Positions 1,233 to 13,582 of a stretch of 64,000 nucleotides of DNA are shown here, piece by piece (position 1 is the first letter of the stretch; every line of letters begins with the position of its first letter). Source of the DNA: Leucoraja ocellata (taxonomy: Eukaryota); NCBI GenBank assembly GCA_036785375.1, contig JAWMAR010000085.1, positions 1,426,001 to 1,490,000 of the forward strand, given 5' to 3'. A program made the position numbers and the translations under genes. The notes under the pieces were generated by a model. That model did not search any database. It worked only from the letters and a program-made list of their open reading frames with translations, and was not told the DNA's origin.

Positions 1233-1579
1233 CTGCCTTGGGGATTCATCCATCTTTTTGCTTTTTAAGAGACCTAACACCATCTACTTGATCTTCAAAT
1301 GTCCGAACATATTGGTATACCCCACACTGATCTCAGTATCCTCCATGTCCTTTTCCTTGAGGAAATGTAATTTTGTAATTTAAGGGGTAGAGAAAACCTA
1401 TGCAAGTTGGAATAATGCCGTGTGGCAATTTTCCTACATTTTAGGCCAGGGAAGCAAGTCTCCTTGTTTGTGACATGTTATTGGAGTTGTTTGCATTGTG
1501 AAATAATAATGTCTGTTTGGAAATTAAATTTAGAGGAAGTTAAGCAGAAAGGAAATGTTTGCAGTCACGTAGGACTCAC

Positions 1580-1675
1580 CTGAAGACTTTCTCTTCAACT
1601 TCCATGTAATCAACACAGCAACAATAATTGCTATGGCACCAATTGAAACTGTTGAAATAATAAGAACACCAATTG
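1580..1675 (-). CDS. TIGIT-like receptor, transmembrane exon (AIGVLIISTVSIGAIAIIVAVLITWKLKRKSS)
   Basis: 96-nt phase 1-1 exon, TTTTACAG acceptor, GTGAGT donor; hydrophobic helix followed by a basic stop-transfer segment. Confidence 0.88.
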
Positions 1676-2205
1676 CTGTAAAATGATGCTGCAGTTCCCT
1701 ATTTACACAGCCCTTGTGTACTATTATTTGCATTGTTGCAATGTGATGCATTTTGTTATTGACAATCCTTCCCCGAGTCCAATTGCTGTTGAGCTTCCCG
1801 TTTTATATGAAGATTAAGAGCATTAAAGACACCGCAAATTAGCTGCTCAAATTATTTGGGTTAAAAGCCACAGCCGCCCAAAAGTAGTTGATAATGCATT
1901 CATGATATTTCAAGTGAAATCAAATTGATTGTACATAAGTCATTGAAGCATAAAAGCTTAAAGGGCAAGATAAATTAATACTGTATAACCATTAGGATAA
2001 CATAATAAAAATAAATAACATAAGTTCAGTATAACTGGATTTGAAAAGCTATGTAGTAACTTCTATTTGCATAACTAGCATAACCTGTACATGTTTTACA
2101 GATTCTTTGTAATATTCTACCAACATTAAATTAATAGTAATTCAAGATTATAAACTAATACTGAAATTGTGAGGATAATGGACAGAGTTTTGTTTTAATT
2201 CTCAC

Positions 2206-2262
2206 CTGCAAGGTATATTAAGATATTTTTCTTAAGACGGTACTTTGCAGTTATGTCATACC
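2206..2262 (-). CDS. TIGIT-like receptor, short stalk exon (GYDITAKYRLKKNILIYLA)
   Basis: 57-nt open phase 1-1 exon with TTTTTTGTTATTAACAG acceptor and GTGAG donor, lying between the IgV and TM exons. Confidence 0.7.
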
Positions 2263-3096
2263 CTGTTAATAACAAAAAAGGTTTACAAATGCATGTTCAA
2301 ATTATTCACTGAATTATATTATTATTGATCAACTTCAAAGATCAGATTCAATGAATTAATCACCTCAAAAACGTTGTGGTACAAGAAATGGAATGGACCA
2401 TGGGGCTGCTGAGGCCTGTTCTTTCACCCATCAAGGACATGGCTGAAGATAGACTCAAAATGCTGGAGTAATTCAGCAGGTGAGGCAGCTTTTGTGGAGT
2501 AAGAAACAATTAACATTTCATCAGTTTTACCTAAGGGCCGTCAACGTGAAACATTAAGTCGGAAAGGTTTTCAATCTGAAACCTTAAGATTGTTTCTCCA
2601 TCCACAGATGCTGCTTATCTTGTTGAGAATTTCAAGCACTTTTTGTTTATGTTTCAGATTTCCAGCCAACACCTACCAATATGCTCCACCTACATTAGTC
2701 TCACCTGCCTGCATTTGGCCCAAATCCTTCTAAACCTCTCCTATCTATGTACCTGTCTGAATGTTTTTTAGATGTTGTGATAGTACACAACAACCTACTC
2801 AACTGCCCACTCTGGCAGCTAGTTCCATATAACTTCCACCTTTTGTATTAAAAAGTTGTGGTACTTTTATAAACACTATTAGCGTGATCCATAATTGGCA
2901 GATGAGAGTATTTAAGAAAAATCTTTCAGCAAATTGGGATTTCTAATCATTATAAAAATGTATCCATTTGAGATTTATCTGAGCTCTCTGGAATAAATGT
3001 ATCCATTCACCATTTTGAAAACCTCCATTTAAATATTGCTTAATTTTACATCATTCAAAGCAGTTCATAAATTTGACATATTTTGTAAAACATTAC

Positions 3097-3426
3097 CGTT
3101 TACATCCAAGTGTACTTTGCCCTGTATTTTGCCGTTTGGATAGGTATGAAATATGCAGGTGTACCATCCACTGTCTGCTGGCTGAACTCCTGTGATTGTG
3201 ATCGTGGATCGATGTCCATTAACTTCCAATTTTATTCGTTCACTGTGGGGAGTTGTTGCGTTTGTGGCCACGTGGAACACAACGAGTTTCGCTCTGTTTT
3301 CGGACTTCTCCCATTCAACTAATACCAGTTTGAGATCTTTGTTTGAAGAGGCACAATGTAATGCTGCAGAACTGCCTTTTACAGCAGTTACTGACCCACT
3401 ACTTTCAAGCTCTTTTGTTTGAATAC
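3097..3426 (-). CDS. TIGIT-like receptor, IgV exon
   Basis: 330-nt phase 1-1 exon, acceptor TTTACTCCCCCAG, donor GTAATG. Translates as GIQTKELESSGSVTAVKGSSAALHC...VEW...TITITGVQPADSGWYTCIFHTYPNGKIQGKVHLDVN. Has the V-set C, W and DxGxYxC residues plus the TYPxG motif of the PVR/nectin-binding family. Confidence 0.92.
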
Positions 3427-4285
3427 CTGGGGGAGTAAAGAAAAATGTGTCATTACACTTTTTAGTTTTGTTTCATTTCGAGATACAGCGTGGAAACAGG
3501 CCTTTCAGCTCACTCAACCATGTACAGTAGTTCTATCCTATGCACTAGGGATAATTAACCAAAGGCAATTAACCTACAAACCTGCATGCCTTTGGAATGT
3601 GGGAGGAAACCAGAACACCCGGAGAAAACACACGCAGTCACAGGGAGAATGTACAAACTCCGTACAGATAGCACCCATAATCAGGATTGAACCAGGTTCT
3701 CTGACATTGTAAGGCAGCAACTCTACTGCTGCACCACTATATCACCCCTTATTCTGTGGATAAAAGTCGGGTCCGGTTGAAAATCTACTCAACTAGGAAC
3801 CCAGCAATATTGGACTCATTTCAGAGCCAAGTACGTGTGAAGGAATTAATCTTTTTGTCGTTTTGGTATGGTTTTCAATTGGTCCAATCATTTTTTTAAT
3901 GGTATAACACTCCTCAAGATACCATCAACAGGTGTAATGCCTGCAATCCATTGCATGTTTTTCAGCCTCACTAGCCTGAAAGATAATAGTTCCTAATAGC
4001 TTTATTAATGCTAAAATGTGTTATTTGAGGGACTAACTCAAACTGCATGGTTTTCTGAAGGAGACTCTTCTGACATGCAGGTTTGTAGATTTATTGTCTT
4101 TGGTAAAAATATTGTAAATTGCCTCTAGTGTGTAGGATAGTGCTACTGTACGGGGTGATCACTGGTCGGCACGGACTCGGTAGGTAAAGAGCGCTGTGTT
4201 TCTAAAGTCTAAATCATGCAAAGGAACTTTTGAGTTTTTCTTTGTTCTTTCATTATTTAAAATACCTCAATCTTCCTTTTCTTAA

Positions 4286-5041
4286 TGGGCCTGTCCCACT
4301 ATGGCAACTTTTTAGGCGACTGCAGGAGACTATGCAGTCACCACATGGTCGCCACATGTGTGTGGGTAGTTGCCGGGGAGTCGCCTTCATGGTAGCGAGG
4401 AGTTCCGCATTCTGGGAACTAGTCACGGCCTGATTATGGTTGCTACGAATTTTTCAACATGTTGAAAAAGTAGCAGCGACTAAATTGAAGCCGCCATGGA
4501 GAGTAGCGAGAATTCTCGTGCCGTAGGTGGGTCACCCAGAGGTCCTAGTGGGTTGCTAGGAGGTCGAAGGTTCTCAGAGGTTCTCATAGGTTGGAGCCGG
4601 TGCTGACCGGTGAACTTCATTGGCTCATTGGGAAAAAAAAGTTAACAGTAGTTTTCAGAACCAAGGATAACAGACCAGTAATGTTAAATTGCCGCCGAGC
4701 TTCACAGCCGTGCATCTCTGGCTTATTAAAAGTTGTCTCTACTCCTTCTCTTCCATTCTCACCCATTTCTCCCCCCCCCCCTCTTTTAAAGGACTTACCG
4801 TACACTGTGCTAGCCATCTTAACTACAGCGCCAACCTTCTTGTTCATCGTGTGTGTGTCTGGATCACCTTGGCTTTGCACTGTGTGATTTTTTTTTTAGA
4901 CACTGCTTCCCCCGCTTGCCCTGTCCCCCGCCTGCATAACGGGCTGGTAAAGGAAACAGTGTGTGTGTGTGTGTGTGTGTGTTCCATTCTGACAGTCAGC
5001 ATTCCAGTTGGCGGTAAAATTGTCGAGGTGGGACAGGTCCA
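4286..5041. mobile_element. PIF/Harbinger-type MITE
   Basis: TAA-TGGGCCTGTCCCAC ... GTGGGACAGGTCCA-TGA; internal palindrome TTTTCAACATGTTGAAAA and a (GT)n tract. Confidence 0.7.
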
Positions 5042-5774
5042 TGAAGCTAGATTCCTGGCTGTTCCTTCTGTCTTGCTGGCTGTGCCTTCTAGTTCTAGAA
5101 TATGCCCTGTAAATATTTTTGGCACATTCTTCAGTGTCTCTTTATATAATATAATGAGCCGGACAGTGAATTGACAGTGAATACACATAATTATAACGTC
5201 TTCACTTCTTATGTCTGTTGCTGTAGAAATGATCCCCCGTGCTCTGTTCACAGGCTCATTGGCATATTAAGCTGCATTGCTAATTTTATTCATTTCTCAA
5301 TCTGTAATTCTAGATCTGTTTGTTTTTATTAATTAAAAAGTCAAGATTGAAGATTGATTTATTGCCATATGTCTTAAAACAGAACAATGAAATTCTTACT
5401 GGATAGATACAAAATGCTTGTGTAGCACTGTTGATCAGGCAGCATCTCTGGAGAAAAAGAATAGGTGATGTTTTGGGTCAGAAGCTTTTAAACTGAAACA
5501 TGGAGGTGGGGGAGGGGGAACCTGTGGCGAGAGGCTGGAACAAATGACGGCCTTTCCTCGTTGTCGTTGAGAGAGAGAGAGAAAGAGGTTGTAATAGACT
5601 TTAATTCCAGGACTCACTTGCTTTACTCAATCCATTATTCATGCTGTAATTAGCTGATGGTGGCAGTGGAATGTTGTGTGGTTTCCGAACTCTGTCATAA
5701 ACGATCAACCTCCTTCTCTGCTGCTTTAAATTTGTTGAAGGGATTTTCCCCTCCACGATACGTGAGATCAAAAG

Positions 5775-6612
5775 GTTCAAGTTCAAGTTCAAGTTCACAT
5801 TAATTGTCACATGCACCAATTAAGGTGCAGTGATATTTGACTTACCATACAGCCAAACAAATAAAAATAACACAATACAGGATAGAGATTAACGTAAACA
5901 TCCATCACAGTGGAATCAACATTCCTCACTGTGATGGAAGGCGATAAAGTTCAGTCAATCTTCCTCCTTTCATCACCTTTGGTCGGGGCCTTGAACCCTC
6001 CGCAGTCGCTGCCAGGGACAGCCCGATGTACAAGCCCTCTCGTCGGGATGATCGAAACTCCGACGTCGAGACAGAAATGAAGACACTGCGTGGTTTGGAG
6101 TTTCCGAATCGGACGCTTCTTACCGGATAACGCGGCTTCACAATGTTAAAGACCACGGGCCAGTGGTCGGAGCTTCTTCTGGTGATCCCCGGCAAGGGAT
6201 CCCAGGCTCCACGATGGTAAGCTGGTGCCCTCGGCTAGAATCTCCGAAGACCGCTGCAGTCAGCAGACCCCCGCGGTCGGAGCTCCAACACTAGCGACGC
6301 TTGGCAAAGGATCCCAGGCTCCGCGATGGTAATTCCACACCGAGCCTGACGCTGTAACTCTGGGCTGGTCTCCGGTCTGGAAAGGCCGCACCAAACTAGT
6401 TGTTAGGCCGCGAGGGGGACGAAGATACGACATGGAGAGAAGTCGCATCTCCGTCGAAGTAAGTGACTGTGAACGCTTTCCCCCTATTCTCCCCCCACCC
6501 CCCACATTAGAAATACAGAGAAACATTAAATCATACATTTAGACGCAGTAAAAATAACAAAAAAAGTTGAAGGCACAGACGGGCTGCTGGCGAGGCTGCC
6601 GCTCGCCGTGAC
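5775..6612 (-). mobile_element. Unclassified non-autonomous retroposon with GC-rich body and (TTGAAC)n tail
   Basis: CAAGTT tandem tail on the + strand at 5778-5797, CpG-rich body, internal direct repeat GGATCCCAGGCTCC at about 6197 and 6309. Confidence 0.5.
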
Positions 6613-7213
6613 GTTAAGGGAAGGTTTTCCACTCTTCCTCCCTTTTTCAACATTCCAGCATAGAATTATACAGCACAGAAACAGCTCTTTGGCCCAACTT
6701 GCCCATACCGACTAAACTACCCCATCCATACTAGTCCCACCTGCCCACATTTTGCCCATATCCCTCCAAACCTTTCCTGTCCATGTACATGTCCAAATGC
6801 CTTTTAAATGTTGTTGTACTACCTACCTCAACTATCTCCTATGGCAGCTCATTCTATACACCCACTTCCCTCTGTGTGAGCAGTTTACTATTTCTGGATA
6901 ATATTCTTTACTTTGTTGCTTAATTGCACATGGTGTGTAGAAAAACACCACACTGTGGTCAGGATCGAACCCGGGTCTCTGCTGCTGTAAGGCTACAACT
7001 CCACTACTGCACCAAGTGTTCCTCATTGTCCATTTTCTGCCTTCATACTGCTATTCATGACCAATCATTAAGCTTCTAAGTCTTCCCTTCACCTACTCTT
7101 CCAGTGCATATATTCAATTTTACTTCGGAGTCACGTGAGTGACTACGTGAAGAACCCGCTTCCAACGCATGCGTGACATATCGCTACACGCATTGCAACG
7201 AGTCACACGGGGA

Positions 7214-8150
7214 ACGGCGGGAGAATTTGAAAGTCGGGAACAGCAGGTAAGAGACTCTGCGTTCCTTCCACTTACCTTTTAGGTGGAGACATGGACCGGA
7301 TCCATGAAGGCTGCAGAAAGCTGGCGGGGGAGAACCGCGGAGTGCGGGCAGCCGGCAACAGCAGCAACGGCACCGATTTCCTGGAGAAGAAACACCTGTG
7401 CCGACTTCGCTCCCGCACCGGCAAAATTCACTTCTCGACCGGGCGGGAAGCGAAGCAAAGACGTCCCGTATGCCAGGCTCAAGCGAGTCTGGCTTGGAGC
7501 AGTCGCTAGCGGCCAGCGCCGAGGCTGCTGGACAGAGAGCAACGAGGGACCAGTGCTGTAAGTACCGGGGGTACACAGGAGAAGCTCAGCGGGTGCAGCG
7601 GCACCAATGGAGCAAAGGAAGTGGGGACGTTTCGGGCCGAAACCCTTCTTCAGACGGTAAGCACCGGGGTTGGTCCAAGGGGTCCCTACGAGCAGCCGGG
7701 AGCGGCCAGTACTGAGGGAACAGCCGGTTTTACCGACTGCGGAACTGCCGCGAGGGACCAGTCCCGTGAACACCGGGGTCGGTCCGAGCGGCTCGAATCT
7801 GACACGCAGGGAACGACGTTCACCAGCGGGAGAATTTGAAAGTCGGGAACAGCAGGTAAGAGACTCTGCGTTCCTTCCACTTACCTTTTAGGTGGAGACA
7901 TGGACCGGGTCCATGAAGGCTGCAGAAAGCTGGCGGGGGAGAACCGTGGAGTGCGGGCAGCCGGCAGGAGCAGCAACGGCACACCGATTTCCGAAGAGGA
8001 AAACACCTGTGCCCGACTTCGCTCCCGCACCGGGGAAAAATTCACTTCTCGGCCGGGTGGGCAGCAAAGCAAAGACGCAAGTACAAAGTATGCCAGTGTC
8101 GCTTTGGAAGCGAGTCTGGTTTGAAGCAGCGCTAGCGGCCAGCGCCGAGG
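7214..8150 (+). repeat. Direct duplication of the DIRS 5' segment (about 7214-7525 and 7826-8150)
   Basis: GCGGGAGAATTTGAAAGTCGGGAACAGCAGGTAAGAGACTCTGCG... occurs twice about 610 nt apart, giving paired ORFs METWTGS/MDRIHEG and METWTGS/MDRVHEG. Confidence 0.9.
7626..7653 (-). ncRNA. Minimal hammerhead motif inside the DIRS element
   Basis: CTGAAGAAGGGTTTCGGCCCGAAACGTC. Confidence 0.62.
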
Positions 8151-8679
8151 CTCACAGAAATGAGGACATTGGAGTGGGGTTGACCGGCTGCAAATGACCG
8201 CGAGGGACCAGTACCGTGAGTACCGGGGTCGGTCCCAGCGGTTTAAGTTACAGAGAGCGGGAGCGCCCAGAACTGAGGGCATTGGAGTGGGGTTGACCGG
8301 CTGCAACGACCGCGAGGGAACAGTACCGTGAGTACTGGGGTCGGTCCCAGCGGTCTGAGATAAACGAGCAGCCAGGAGCGCTGAGAGCGTTGGAGCCGGT
8401 TTTGACCGGCTACACAGCAAAATCCCGACGAATCAGGTACAACCCCACGGACCCCATTGAATTGAGTGGCGGTGCAGGCTCGAGGGGCTGAATGGCCTGC
8501 TCCTGCACCTAATTTCTATGTTTTTTCTATGTTACTATGACCCTTATTATAGGTATGTGGGAAAATGGTGTAGACCTAAAAATAGGGTTTTTTTCATAAA
8601 AATCTGTTTGTTCATCCTTTGGTTAAAGTATTAGATGGGTCCAGGGCGCTGGAAGTACGGAGACGCCGAAGGCGTGGAC

Positions 8680-9134
8680 CCGAGAAACTGGTGTTTGTCA
8701 TACAGGATTTAATAAAACAAAACAGACCAGGTTCATCGGGTCAAGTGTTTGAATTTATGGTATATCCATATGACGAACGACTGTGTATAGCAAGACACAT
8801 CCAACTATACATAGAATATACTAAGAGCATTCGAGGTCAGGAAATGGCGTTGTTAATCTCTTACAAGAAACCGCACAAAAGGGTCACGACCCAAACTATA
8901 TCAAGGTGGCTCAAATATGTCCCAAAGATGGCAGGAATAGACACTAATGTTTTTAACTCTCATTCCACCAGGGCTGCAGCAACATCCGCAGCAAAAATTC
9001 TAGAGGTACCCACAGACCAAATCCTCGGAATGGCAGGATGGTCATCCGAAAGGACTTTCCAAAGGTTTTTTATAATAAACCAGTTTTTGGAGCCATCATC
9101 GTGTTCGGAATTCATTTTACGTTCAACAATATAA
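8680..9134 (+). pseudogene. C-terminal part of DIRS tyrosine recombinase
   Basis: LIKQNRPG...LCIARHI..YI..T...LLISY.KPHK.VT..TISRW...HSTRAAATS...AGWSSERTFQRF. The expected catalytic Tyr (FYNKP) is shifted out of frame at the T run 9066-9071. Confidence 0.88.
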
Positions 9135-11079
9135 TTTGCCCGAAAGGTTACAGGGCTATGATTTTCAATTAAAAAATTTATATTTTTTCGTTATACCACA
9201 CAACTCTTTGTATAAGTGTGTTTTTAAAATTACTAATGATGCTCTCTCCCAATACCCAAGGCAGTTGCGAAGCATGGACTCGTTCCACAGCATGAGGTCA
9301 CAGAGCTTTGAAATCTTCACGTAGTCACTCACGTGACTCCGAAGTAAAATAGTAAGATTAAACGAGAACTTACCAGTTTGAAGTTTGATCTGTATTTTAT
9401 GAGGAGGAACGTTGAGGGAATACGTGCCCTCCGCTCCCACCCTCCTATGATCATATCAAAAACTGGTATCTCTTTGATAATCTTACTATGTTAGGTCATT
9501 ATAGGTTTCTGTGACCTCACACCGCTGCTTTGAAGAATGACACGCATGCGTTGGAAGCGGGTTCTTCACGTATTCCCTCAACGTTCCTCCTCATAAAATA
9601 CAGATCAAACCTCAAACTGGTAAGTTCTCGTTTAATCTTACTATTTTGTATCACTCTCTGCATGAAGTTTTGTTTCTTGCCATTTATTCTGCTGCACTTT
9701 TACTATTTTGACTGACTATTTGGTATTTTGCCTCTAAATATCACTTGAAGACATTGACATTTACATTGTTGCTCAGTCTACTAGGTTCCCACGGCTAATT
9801 TTGTTGCTCCAGGTTCTAGCTTCTGCAGTCTCTTGCGGTCTGCATATGCCTTGTTTATCTTTCAAATTCTTTGACATGTCTTTTTTAAGATCTCCATTTC
9901 TACATATTTAGTTTAAACTGAAAAACCCCAAACTATCTGGTTATTTTTTTTGTAGATTTGTGCTTATGACTTGTGGTCAGCAAGAATAGAACCATTTACA
10001 TGCAACAACTTAAATTGGACATTTATATGTAAAATATCACATTACATTTTGGCCGGCTCTTTCTTTACCCTTTTAGCTATTTAATTTATTATTAACTTAA
10101 TGTTTAATCTGAAATTAGTTCTGTCGTTTACCTCATTTCTTACCTCATTTAGACATTTTCTTTTTTTCCCCCTCTATCTCATCTATCGTTACATAGAACA
10201 GTACCAAAGATAGACGCAAAATACTGGAGTAACTCAGCGGGACAGGCAGCATCTCTGGAGAGAAGGAATGGGTGATGTTACTCATTCCTTCTCTCCAGAG
10301 ATGCTGCCTGGCCCGCTGAGTTACTCCGCCATTTTGTACCTGTCTGGTTTAAACTTCCTAAACATAGAACAACACCACACAGGAACAGCCTCCCCACAAT
10401 GTCCGTGCTGACTATGATGCCAAGATAAACTAACCCCCCCCCCCACCCCACCACCGAAATGTGACACATATCCCTCCATTCCCTGCATACACATGTGCCT
10501 ATCTAAACATCTCTTAAATGCCTTTACTTTGCATGCAGTTACGCTTTTGTTTTGTTCAAGGCCTGAGGACATTTGACTACATTAAAAGCTGAAGCTAAGC
10601 ATAGATTGTTATTGTAATCGGTCGCTGCTGACTGTGATTACTTGGGCATGTGTGTAAGATGTAAGATGTTGGTTGATGTCTAGTAAGATCTCGCTATAGA
10701 CACAAAGTGCTCCATGGACCCAACTCAGAGGGTCAGGCAACATCTCTGGAGAACATGGATATGTGACGTTTCAGATAAGGACCCATCGCCAGACTCTTGA
10801 GATCTCTTGACCTCTTATTTGCATTTGTTTGTCATTTATTGGTTTTGTTCTGTTCACACATACTTCATCCATCTTATTAATTAATTTCAAATTACTTACT
10901 CTGACTCCATTGTCCTGCCTAGTTATATGTTCATTTCAATTTTAATGTTTCCAATCACAAGATTATGGCCTTTTGACAAAGTACTCAGTCCTCCCTCAAT
11001 CTCAAATTAACTACTCTGAAAAGTATTTGTTACTTGGTCTCTAATTTCACTAAATCTTTGAGACGATAAGACCATAAGA

Positions 11080-11790
11080 CAATAAGGCATAGGAGCAGAA
11101 TTAGGCCATTCGGCCCATTGAGTCTGCTCTACCATTCAATCATGGCTGATCTATCTTTCCCTCTCAACCCCATTCGCCAACCTTCTCCCCATAATCTTTG
11201 ACACCCGTACTAATCAAGAACCTACAGGCGGCAAGGTGGTGCAATGGTAGGTTTTGTGCCTTACAGCGCCAGAGACCCGGGTTTGATCCTGACTGCGGGT
11301 GCTGTCTGTACGGAGTATAAATGGCTTCCTGTGACCGCCGGGGTTTTCTCCAGGTACTCTGGTTTCCTCCCACACTCCAAACACATACAGGTTTGTAGGT
11401 TAATTGGCTTCAGTAAGTTGTAAAATAAATTGTCCCTGGTGTGTGCAGGTTAGTGTCGGGGTGATCACTGGTCGGTGTGGACTCAGTGGGCCGAAGGGCC
11501 TGTTTCTGTACTGTATCTCTAAAGTCTAAAGTCTACCCTATCAATCTCCGTTTTAAATAAACCCAATAACTTGCTTTCCACAGCCGTCTGTGGCAATTAA
11601 TTCCACAGATTCACCACCCTCTGACTATAGAAATTCCTCCTCATCTCCATTCTAAATGTACATCCTTTTATTTTGAGGATGTGCCCTCTGGTTCTAGACT
11701 CTCCCACTACTGGAAACATCCTTTCCACACCCATTCTATCCAGGTTTTTCATTATCCAGTAGGTTTCAATAAGATCCCCTCTCACTCTTC
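11080..11790 (-). mobile_element. CR1 3' fragment interrupted by a + strand SINE (about 11227-11535)
   Basis: MRGDLIETY...RVVNLWN and 3'UTR flank a full SINE. Confidence 0.85.
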
Positions 11791-13239
11791 TATTCTCAAA
11801 ATAATCCTCACAACATTTCTTAGTTTAATCCTCCGGAGCTGCAGCGTTCATGGCAAACAGAACTCCCTCAGTAGCCGAGTATTGCCTCTGGTGCTCAACT
11901 TTATTTCCCCTCAACCATTGAGAGATATGAGGCCAAACTGGGTGGATAAGGTAGGCATAGACACATTACTGAATGGCAGAAAAAGCTTGAGATGCTGGTC
12001 TCAAATCTCTTCTTCACCAAGTATTTATTTCTTCTGAGTTGATCATAAAAGGACCACTATTAAATCATCAATTCTGATGGTGTTCTGTTGTAAAACAGCT
12101 AGATAAAAAGGGAAATGAAATAAAAGGGTAGTAAAAGAGGAGATCCTAACTATGGGTGCTGTCTGTATGGAGTTTATATGTTCTCCCCATGACCTGCGTG
12201 TTTTTTCTCCAGGTGCTCCGTTTTCCTCCAACGCTTCAAAGGCGCACATGTTTGTAGGCTAATTGGGTTGGTTAAATTGTCCCTAGTGTGTGTAGAATAG
12301 TGTTAGTGTGCAGGGATCATAGGTCATCGTGGACTCAGCGGGCCAAAGGTCCTGATTCCACTCATATCTCTAAACTAAACTAAACTAAAATAAAGATAAT
12401 AATGGGGTTATTACTATAGATGATGAACTAAAGGGAATGAAAGATATAAAAATCACCGATGAAAAGCATAACTGAATTTAATGCTGTTTGCCACAGAAAT
12501 GACCGGATATAAGTATTTATTCTTTGGACTTTACTTTAGACTTTAGAAATACAGCATGAAAACAGGCCCTTCAGCCCACCGGGTCCACACTGACCAGCGA
12601 TCACCTGCACACTAGAATCCTACACACTAAGGATCATTTACTGAAGCCGATTAGCTTTTAAACCTGCACGTCTTTGGAATATGGGAGGAAACCCGAGCAC
12701 ACGGAGAAAATCCACGCGGCCACTTGGAGAACGCTGTCAGGCAGCAACTCTACTGCTGCGCCGCCCTTGATGGGATGCAGGTGTCACTGGTGAAGTTGGT
12801 GTCTAATTTTCCATTGAACTCAATATCTTTCTAAACCATTTAGAAGTGCTGATCGTATTATGGGCCAAGAGTCACACATATTCCGGGCCAGTTAAATCTG
12901 GCAGATTATCATCCTTCAGAATATCAGTAGACAACTTATTTAAATAACATTTACATTTAAACTTTCCTGACAAGATTTTAATTCCCGAAATAGTAGTAAA
13001 TTCTGTAATCACATTTCCCAAATATGTGCATGACGACCTCAATCTTTGGCAACAATCTCGTATAAACGTGATTTTTTTTCTCCCTGCTGAACAATTAATA
13101 GTTAAATTGTTTAATCTACCATTACATTACCACATTATCTTTGCTCTAAATGAGGCCATAAAGTAAATGCCTTCGCATAAACTACTTACAGTTGTAAAAT
13201 AATTAAAAAGTTGCCAGTTAACTAATTTTGCACTGCATT

Positions 13240-13444
13240 CGTAGAGACAAAGAGCTGCAGATGTTGGTTAATACACAAAAGCCCACAAAGTGCTGGACTA
13301 ACTCAGCAGGTCAGGCAGCATCTGTGCAGAACATGAACAGGTGACGTTTCAGGTCTGAAGAAGGGTCCTGACCAGAAACATCACCTGCCAATATTTTCCA
13401 GCAATGCTGCCTAACCTGCTGAATTGCTCCAGTTCTTTGTGTAA
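13240..13444. mobile_element. Fold-back Penelope-terminus mini-element
   Basis: Inverted arms; TTTGYACTGCATT duplicated at 13227-13239 and 13445-13457. Confidence 0.78.
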
Positions 13445-13518
13445 TTTGTACTGCATTTGTTACATTCACAATATTGCCGTAATATTAATCATCTCTTTTA
13501 ATGTAGGATTGTACTTAC

Positions 13519-13582
13519 CAGGCACATATAGGATGCAAATGGCAGAAGCTTTCATTATCTTCATCAATGTCAACCAAAACAT
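13519..13582 (-). CDS. TIGIT-like receptor, signal-peptide exon (MFWLTLMKIMKASAICILYVP-G)
   Basis: ATG at 13582 in AAAATG context; 21 codons plus 1 nt; hydrophobic; donor GTAAGT at 13518; phase 1 matches the IgV exon. A strong acceptor (TTTTATTTTCTACAG) opens the exon at 13611. Confidence 0.75.

Follow-up and report, generated by a model that had tools for sequence, protein, structure and literature searches.

A Probable Conversion-Matched Twin of TIGIT With a YENV Tail in Cartilaginous Fishes

Introduction

TIGIT (VSTM3 or VSIG9) is a major immunotherapy target. To our knowledge, mammalian TIGIT has no near-identical twin, and none was found among the proteins of fewer than 420 residues compared here. 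In paired receptors, activating partners are usually marked by a charged transmembrane (TM) residue and an ITAM, and pairs held together by gene conversion are usually taken to reflect selective pressure from pathogens on the inhibitory member. Such pairs are described for Siglec-11/16, Siglec-5/14 and CEACAM1/3, which are neighbouring genes that have opposite signs, undergo conversion centred on the ligand-binding exon and yield species-grouped trees (PMC5701461; PMC2832619). These cases come from within primates or mammals, and they rely on either a charged TM residue together with DAP12 or a motif resembling an ITAM.

The tail of TIGIT combines a YFNV motif with an ITIM. According to one study, the YxN at Y225 of human TIGIT binds Grb2 and inhibits, whereas the cytoplasmic YxN of CD226 (DNAM-1), a nectin-family receptor, binds Grb2 and activates (PMC9263721). 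A 2026 survey treats TIGIT, CD96 and CD226 as an amniote-specific group (PMC13262535), and human TIGIT and ZBTB20 are placed on one 580-kb segment (PMC3261728).

Here, we analyzed a stretch of 64,000 nt from the skate Leucoraja ocellata (hereafter the window), whose minus strand encodes most of a TIGIT-like receptor, gene A. A second gene, B, lies 72 kb beyond gene A, and on both haplotypes the two genes point the same way. The reading that we consider probable is that gene A is an ancient neighbor of TIGIT, which is gene B, that the two IgV exons have stayed near-identical likely through repeated conversion, and that gene A is likely a paired counter-receptor for a nectin-type ligand with a predicted Grb2-recruiting YENV tail.

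Structure and Family of Gene A

Four exons of gene A are located in the window: the leader exon (13519..13582; 64 nt from ATG to donor), which is identical between both haplotypes and of the same type as shark A-type leaders; the IgV exon (3097..3426; 330 nt); the stalk exon (2206..2262; 57 nt, phase 1-1), whose product aligns with the stalk segment of A-type proteins from sharks; and the TM exon (1580..1675; 96 nt), whose hydrophobic span, by direct reading of the sequences, contains no charged residue. The original prediction of four phase-compatible exons holds, as these show AG/GT ends, phase 1 joins and no stop, and all four are present with the same donors on both haplotypes. The C-terminal end of the IgV domain also reads as first given. 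A single Ig domain before the TM segment had been proposed, and neither a pattern search nor an Ig profile from 400 segments revealed extra Ig exons between leader and TM. In this profile scan, gene A thus lacks the two or three Ig domains of the CD226 or CD96 type; the A-type shark models have one IgV each.

In Pfam, the IgV domain of gene A belongs to the V-set family (E 5e-13). A PDB sequence search ranked TIGIT first (E 1e-9), followed by nectin-1 (8e-8), and TIGIT was also the best match in a fold comparison, with nectin-1 almost equal. Profile ranking gave TIGIT (4e-14), nectin-1 (8e-11), CD226 (2e-10) and CD96 (5e-8). In an IgV tree without CD96 and PVRIG sequences, the domain falls tentatively with bony-vertebrate TIGIT and apart from nectins, CD200 and CD226, the branch in question having a support of 79/75 (not starred). 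The assignment of a TIGIT-type single IgV to the skate was right as to family, and the locus lies between a CD200R1-like gene, of which one exon is found within the window (E 2e-8), and ZBTB20.

Gene A shares with TIGIT the single IgV, the fold and the T(F/Y)P key motif, which is retained as HTYP in line with the original prediction. Two pocket motifs of TIGIT, (V/I)(S/T)Q and AX6G, had been reported as missing, and in the alignment gene A indeed has LVLVEW and VVFHVATN where human TIGIT has VTQVNW and AICNADLG. This loss is, however, no peculiarity of gene A, as both motifs are missing from gene B as well and from almost every A or B row of the chondrichthyans; four of the five bony rows keep (V/I)(S/T)Q. 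PDB comparison fixes a name for neither of two further IgV domains of the skate: one on another contig of the genome (L072) is CD226-like, in a near tie with nectin-1, and for the other (L076) nectin-1 ranks over CD200.

Gene B and the TIGIT Locus

Gene B lies outside the window, with its IgV exon at C85:1357041-1357370 (G000), its leader at about C85:1381661-1381700 and, on the second haplotype, its TM and tail exons at C535:396229-396330 and about 399650-399823. It is arranged tail-to-tail with ZBTB20, a zinc finger of which was found on the opposite strand of C535 approximately 47 kb past the gene B tail. While gene A shares with TIGIT a location near ZBTB20, the direct neighbor of ZBTB20 is gene B, and gene A stands one gene further off. 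The tail of gene B is of the DYFSV type, with a tyrosine aligned with that of TIGIT and without the second ITIM tyrosine, and groups with bony-vertebrate TIGIT in a tree of C-terminal sequences.

The search beyond the window for tail exons of gene A, as originally suggested, did yield tyrosine exons, but these encode a YENV tail and not the DYFNV type of TIGIT. The first (C85:1421558-1421614) lies approximately 4.4 kb before window base 1, and the second, an in-frame exon with PPIYENVDN (C85:1420939-1420992), approximately 5.0 kb before it. Searching with the tail ends of shark proteins gave no last exon beyond the latter. In the C-terminal tree, the YENV tail falls on the opposite side from bony TIGIT. 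Gene A is consequently not the TIGIT orthologue; the orthologue is the neighboring gene B, and synteny places TIGIT in cartilaginous fishes. Of the two options first offered for gene A, an early-branching TIGIT orthologue or a sister lineage, the former belongs to gene B by tail and ZBTB20. The latter comes closer, since the TIGIT-like IgV of gene A results from sharing with gene B and its leader, TM and YENV tail differ; the pairing itself is not visible from the window alone.

Identity Limited to the IgV Exon

The IgV exons of genes A and B are 97.3-97.6% identical over 330 nt, compared to 97.9% between alleles, and the match stops 5-6 nt into the introns, with only 21/60 and 19/60 identical positions in the flanks. 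Leader, TM and tail exons of the two genes are unrelated. Both IgV copies are present on both haplotypes with different introns, and one amino-acid variant is common crosswise to paralogues and haplotypes. At four-fold sites, 46 of 48 positions are identical. Silent sites are thus as alike as replacement sites, and selection at the protein level cannot explain the likeness of A and B.

A similar picture was obtained for another species (organism C, run X6), where a contig over 3099-3337 with a depth of 53.8 overlaps two contigs with differing flanks. One of these carries the intron of gene A (depth 25.6), and the match of the other ends at 3431, like that of gene B. As heterozygous flanks can also halve depth, the depth values are not decisive alone and weight is placed on the contig overlaps. 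The shared contig shows 12 differences, and three of the four listed are absent from all four skate copies. In practical terms, short reads, primers or antibodies directed at the IgV are unable to separate genes A and B.

The Pair Across Cartilaginous Fishes

The pair is annotated in eight of the 18 other cartilaginous fishes retrieved, a chimaera included, and an A-type protein was not retrieved in the remaining ten, among them all six rays and skates. The shark sequences come from automatic gene prediction; several A-type proteins carry the RefSeq label "TIGIT-like," and in one species the annotation merges genes A and B (P0167). In the nine species with both genes, A and B are 79-97% identical in the IgV and 12-21% in the C-terminus. 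Between lineages, IgV identity is 49-55% (skate-shark) and 35% (skate-chimaera). In six of the nine species, the paralogue is nearer than the gene A of any other species. The three Hemiscyllium/Chiloscyllium species have orthologues nearer than paralogues, which indicates that conversion is episodic.

The IgV tree groups sequences by lineage and a clade of A sequences is rejected (p-AU 0.0004), whereas the C-terminal tree groups them by paralogue, with gene A on one side at 100/99 and gene B with bony TIGIT on the other. Taken together, the exon-limited identity and the conflicting trees argue strongly for gene conversion that is restricted to the exon for ligand binding as the mechanism behind the likeness of the two IgV domains. 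The comparison points to conversion since before the split of chimaeras and sharks approximately 420 My ago.

Among the proteins of fewer than 420 residues compared, a single YEN tail occurred outside the chondrichthyan A set, in the unnamed P0156, which was rejected as a bony-vertebrate A orthologue since its IgV fell outside the TIGIT group. Atlas searches returned generic single-IgV clusters and, for the C-terminus, no entry that reached 0.9. In the literature on TIGIT and evolution or fish, outside subscription journals and bioRxiv supplements, no description of such a pair in chondrichthyans was found, and the pair is apparently undescribed so far.

Ligand and Signaling

Altered nectin binding had been considered for gene A. 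The modeled complex of its IgV with a skate nectin-like domain does not support this so far, as it shows the usual double lock-and-key known from TIGIT. The complex scored 0.77 against 0.01 for the best control (the score mark is reached by 51/78 solved and 2/108 mismatched microbial pairs, and by 71/105 and 2/126 for eukaryotes), runs agreed in at least 95% of contacts and the partner pLDDT was at least 87. Since TIGIT-nectin complexes are already solved, the prediction speaks for likeness and not for binding by gene A. Given the near-identical domains and this predicted complex with one nectin-like partner, A and B may share a nectin-type ligand.

In the proposed mechanism, ancient neighbors would have diverged in leader, TM and tail, repeated conversion would keep the IgV exons matched within each lineage, and the matched domains would bind the same nectin-type ligand. 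Phosphorylated YENV of gene A would then recruit Grb2, like the YxN of CD226, and co-stimulate, while gene B would inhibit. By analogy with CD226, we place moderate confidence in these opposite roles. A strict YxN is present in nine of nine A tails and doubled in six; it occurs at the terminal tyrosine of five of 17 B tails, the other 12 lacking N+2.

Alternative Explanations

The skate copy of gene A could be a decaying pseudogene whose IgV is refreshed by conversion from TIGIT, with a working pair in sharks and chimaeras. This is compatible with the paired counter-receptor reading, and we hold it to be possible but doubtful. In its favor, the first YEN exon is broken on both haplotypes, A proteins are missing from the six batoid species, and four of five differences from organism C in the stalk and TM exons change a residue, although these numbers are small. 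These two exons also had zero depth in three of three RNA runs (tissues unknown; approximately 5%, 6% and 25% of the respective runs used). However, the shared IgV exon was itself barely covered, with only about three reads in one run that are not assignable to A or B, so that these runs say little on gene A. A search for RNA data sets containing window positions 1500-3500 listed none. The suggested check of splicing found the exons in phase but no exon-to-exon joint listed in the three runs, the leader-IgV junction lying outside the coverage of the reads compared. Against decay, both haplotypes show open frames and intact donors for the leader, IgV, stalk and TM exons as well as the second YEN exon, annotated shark isoforms (P0192, P0194) also skip one YEN exon, and the C-terminal end branch of skate A (0.84) is about equal to the summed path to skate B. 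Minus one of its two YEN exons, skate gene A may be weakened.

Alternatively, the same pair history might have made gene A not an activating receptor but another inhibitory one, a tuning receptor or a competitor that does not signal. We regard this as unlikely. Gene A carries neither a charged TM residue nor an ITAM, and the CD226-like domain elsewhere in the genome suggests that an activating nectin receptor may already exist in the skate. Polarity is not fixed by sequence, as the YxN of human TIGIT binds Grb2 yet inhibits and the second YENV of gene A loosely matches the ITIM consensus in four of nine species. The consistent difference between A and B tails and the opposite signs of the conversion-held pairs described in the Introduction nevertheless speak for an activating gene A.

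Finally, it is very improbable that gene A is a plain TIGIT orthologue, as its best PDB match and RefSeq labels might suggest, or that the second IgV reflects an assembly duplicate or strong purifying selection, since gene B has the bony-TIGIT-type tail and borders ZBTB20, two copies with different introns exist per haplotype, and silent sites are as conserved as replacement sites.

Discussion

Gene A and gene B resemble the Siglec and CEACAM pairs in being neighbors with conversion at the ligand-binding exon and species-grouped trees, but the pair extends from chimaera to skate and has YxN tails in place of a charged TM residue. If it has persisted since chimaeras and sharks parted, such a pair would by far predate the mammalian cases covered in PMC5701461 and PMC2832619. 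Gene A is also distinct from TIGIT in its leader, TM segment, stalk exon and YENV tail. CD226, with its activating YxN (PMC9263721), is its likely working analogue, even though CD226 carries two IgV domains and is a distant relative of TIGIT, whereas gene A has one that is near-identical to that of TIGIT.

Tentatively, TIGIT may have begun in a true pair, with a Grb2-coupled activating twin that exon-limited conversion kept matched for more than 400 My in cartilaginous fishes; bony vertebrates would have lost this twin, leaving CD226 alone on the activating side. The A/B pair represents a natural tail swap, in which one ectodomain is joined to two tyrosine motifs, and thereby bears on how a YxN/Grb2 motif can be inhibitory in TIGIT yet activating in CD226.

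Gene A and the Neighboring TIGIT Orthologue

The predicted single-IgV receptor, termed gene A here, stands as a gene model: its four exons (13582-13519; IgV, 3426-3097; stalk, 2262-2206; transmembrane, TM, 1675-1580; all on the reverse strand) have AG/GT ends and join in phase 1 into an open reading frame without a stop, and a profile of 400 Ig segments revealed no other Ig exon within the gene. The IgV is a V-set domain whose top match in a PDB sequence search was TIGIT (E 1e-9; nectin-1, E 8e-8), and its predicted model (pLDDT 93) is closest in fold to TIGIT, with nectin-1 nearly equal.

The nearest database protein, P0001 (“TIGIT-like,” L. erinacea), has the IgV in common with gene A but differs in leader, TM and tail. 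These three parts match those of a neighboring gene outside the window, gene B, which suggests that the source organism is a skate near L. erinacea. Based on P0001, the gene B leader lies at C85:1381700 on the contig carrying the window and its IgV at C85:1357041-1357370, 72 kb downstream of the gene A IgV. A gap (G000:C85:1348169-1348368) truncates gene B ahead of the TM exon, and beyond it the match to a second contig, C535, is lost; TM and tail are found on C535. Searching the genome for the IgV identified four near-identical copies, two on each contig. As both contigs are collinear at about 98% identity, C535 is read as the second haplotype. Because its tail clusters with bony-vertebrate TIGIT in a C-terminal tree, gene B is, as judged from sequence, the TIGIT orthologue, a status that the original prediction had considered for gene A. 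A ZBTB20 exon lies on the opposite strand, facing gene B, about 47 kb beyond the gene B tail; the human TIGIT and ZBTB20 genes are arranged tail-to-tail. Both human genes are contained in one 580-kb segment (PMC3261728).

Upstream of gene A on the reverse strand is a CD200R1-like gene (IgV, C2-type Ig and TM), with exons inside the window at 56533-56261 and near 53903-53820 and its IgV at G000:C85:1502985. The C2 exon has CD200R1 as top PDB match, and tail exons were not found. Further Ig receptor genes are located at G000:C85:1570275 and 1548680 (reverse strand), and at 1610283-1610591 and 1617387 as well as 1736772 and 1738650 (forward strand). One IgV frame among them lacks the second cysteine, and two tandem IgV exons appear CD200-like by their motifs, a likeness for which PDB matches gave no confirmation. 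With a profile of the shark A-type C-terminus, the TM exons at window about 53900 and C85:1548680 score as well as or close to that of gene A (1580-1675). The membrane part of gene A may have descended from these CD200R-like neighbors, although TM composition by itself could yield the same scores. Another contig (G000:C89) bears, 3 Mb apart, two copies (L072 and L073) of a CD226-like or nectin-like IgV, with equal scores.

Identity Limited to the IgV Exon

The IgV exons of genes A and B differ at 8-9 of 330 bases, compared to seven between alleles, and identity stops 5-6 bases into either intron. Only 21 and 19 of the 60 flanking bases match, and local alignment of the 1-kb flanks yielded a single short match per side, out of register. 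A recent gene duplication is disfavored, since it would have kept the introns alike. Selection at the protein level leaves silent sites unprotected and fails to account for identity at 46 of 48 four-fold sites. One IgV variant is common crosswise to paralogues and haplotypes.

In run X6 from a second organism (organism C, about 3% diverged), a contig covering 3099-3337 at a depth of 53.8, which by itself might also be due to heterozygous flanks, overlaps both a contig of the gene A intron and a contig whose match ends at 3431, as that of gene B does. It breaks at 3338, a site also distinguishing A from B in the skate genome. Three of the four differences listed (of 12) are missing from all four skate copies, and the simplest reading of these sequences is that both genes would have gained the variants together.

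The A/B Pair in Cartilaginous Fishes

Profile and word searches and name look-ups retrieved proteins of this group from 18 other chondrichthyan species. An A-type protein was identified in eight of them (Heterodontus, Carcharodon, Cetorhinus, Hemiscyllium, two Chiloscyllium, Stegostoma and the chimaera Callorhinchus). The 417-residue Stegostoma model P0167 combines both genes and is probably an annotation fusion. In species with two models, A and B are found on contigs of equal size, which fits adjacency.

Within species (nine including the skate), A and B are 79-97% identical in the IgV and 12-21% in the C-terminus, while IgV identity between lineages is 49-55% (skate-shark) and 35% (skate-chimaera). 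In six of the nine species the own paralogue is nearer than the A of any other species. For the three species of Hemiscyllium and Chiloscyllium, it is the orthologue that is nearer, indicating that the probable gene conversion between A and B is episodic. In the IgV tree, built from 32 rows, sequences cluster by lineage and a clade of A genes is rejected (p-AU 0.0004). In the unrooted tree of C-termini, built from 31 rows after doubtful ends had been cut from two A tails, every A falls on one side (100/99, with long-branch warnings), and the A C-terminus may be non-homologous to that of B.

Predicted Ligand Binding and Signaling

Given their near-identical IgV domains, A and B would bind a common ligand. 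When the gene A IgV was modeled in complex with L069, a nectin-like domain of the skate, the prediction scored 0.77 (best control, 0.01). Among microbial pairs, 51 of 78 solved and 2 of 108 mismatched ones attain the score mark; among eukaryotic pairs, 71 of 105 and 2 of 126 do. Runs share at least 95% of contacts, with partner pLDDT of at least 87. As TIGIT-nectin complexes are already solved, this prediction expresses likeness only and is silent on which nectin binds. In the model, receptor Y95 lies inside the nectin AX6G stretch and nectin F102 packs against L35, V49 and H51, so that the lock, for which altered nectin binding had been proposed, looks reshaped rather than lost. Across the four IgV copies (3097-3426), 10 of 15 variable sites alter a residue; four map next to the predicted lock, within residues 45-52.

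Shark A tails mostly carry two YENV repeats, one being skipped in annotated isoforms. In the skate, a tail exon beyond the window (C85:1420992-1420939) encodes PPIYENVDN in frame, while the homologue of the first repeat (C85:1421614) is broken, being out of frame with a stop on both haplotypes. A YxN motif is present in all nine A tails and in all five bony TIGIT tails; of the 17 B tails, five have it at their terminal tyrosine. CD226 activates via a Grb2-binding YxN, and human TIGIT Y225 likewise binds Grb2, yet inhibits (PMC9263721). Because YxN is kept and usually doubled in A, with N+2 gone from the majority of B tails, gene A is with moderate confidence the putative co-stimulatory member of the pair; against this sign, it has neither an ITAM nor any charged residue in the TM.

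Status of the Skate Copy

Apart from the first YENV repeat, the exons and donors of gene A are intact on both haplotypes. Depth was zero over both the stalk and the TM exon in each of three RNA runs from organism D, of which about 5, 6, and 25% were read (tissues unknown); about three IgV reads occurred in one run, and no exon-to-exon joints were among those listed. No A protein was retrieved among six batoid species, and four of five stalk and TM differences from organism C alter a residue. The RNA result, the missing batoid protein and these differences are counted against a live skate gene A.

Discussion

RefSeq automatic labels name many of this group “TIGIT-like” or “CD226-like,” with A and B unseparated. 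No description of the pair was found in the TIGIT literature searched. TIGIT is assigned to Amniota (PMC13262535); nectin-1 and -3 are reported for sharks, and PVR is assigned to placental mammals (PMC7286890); PMC12151841 names TIGIT solely in its references. Siglec-11/16 (PMC5701461) and CEACAMs (PMC2832619) are described as paired receptors held alike by conversion, as is likely for the A/B pair. Conversion-kept paired receptors are already known, and a TIGIT-type pair is apparently undescribed. The chimaera-elasmobranch split is dated to about 420 My (PMC6238376), and the A/B pair is, on comparison of its sequences, old.
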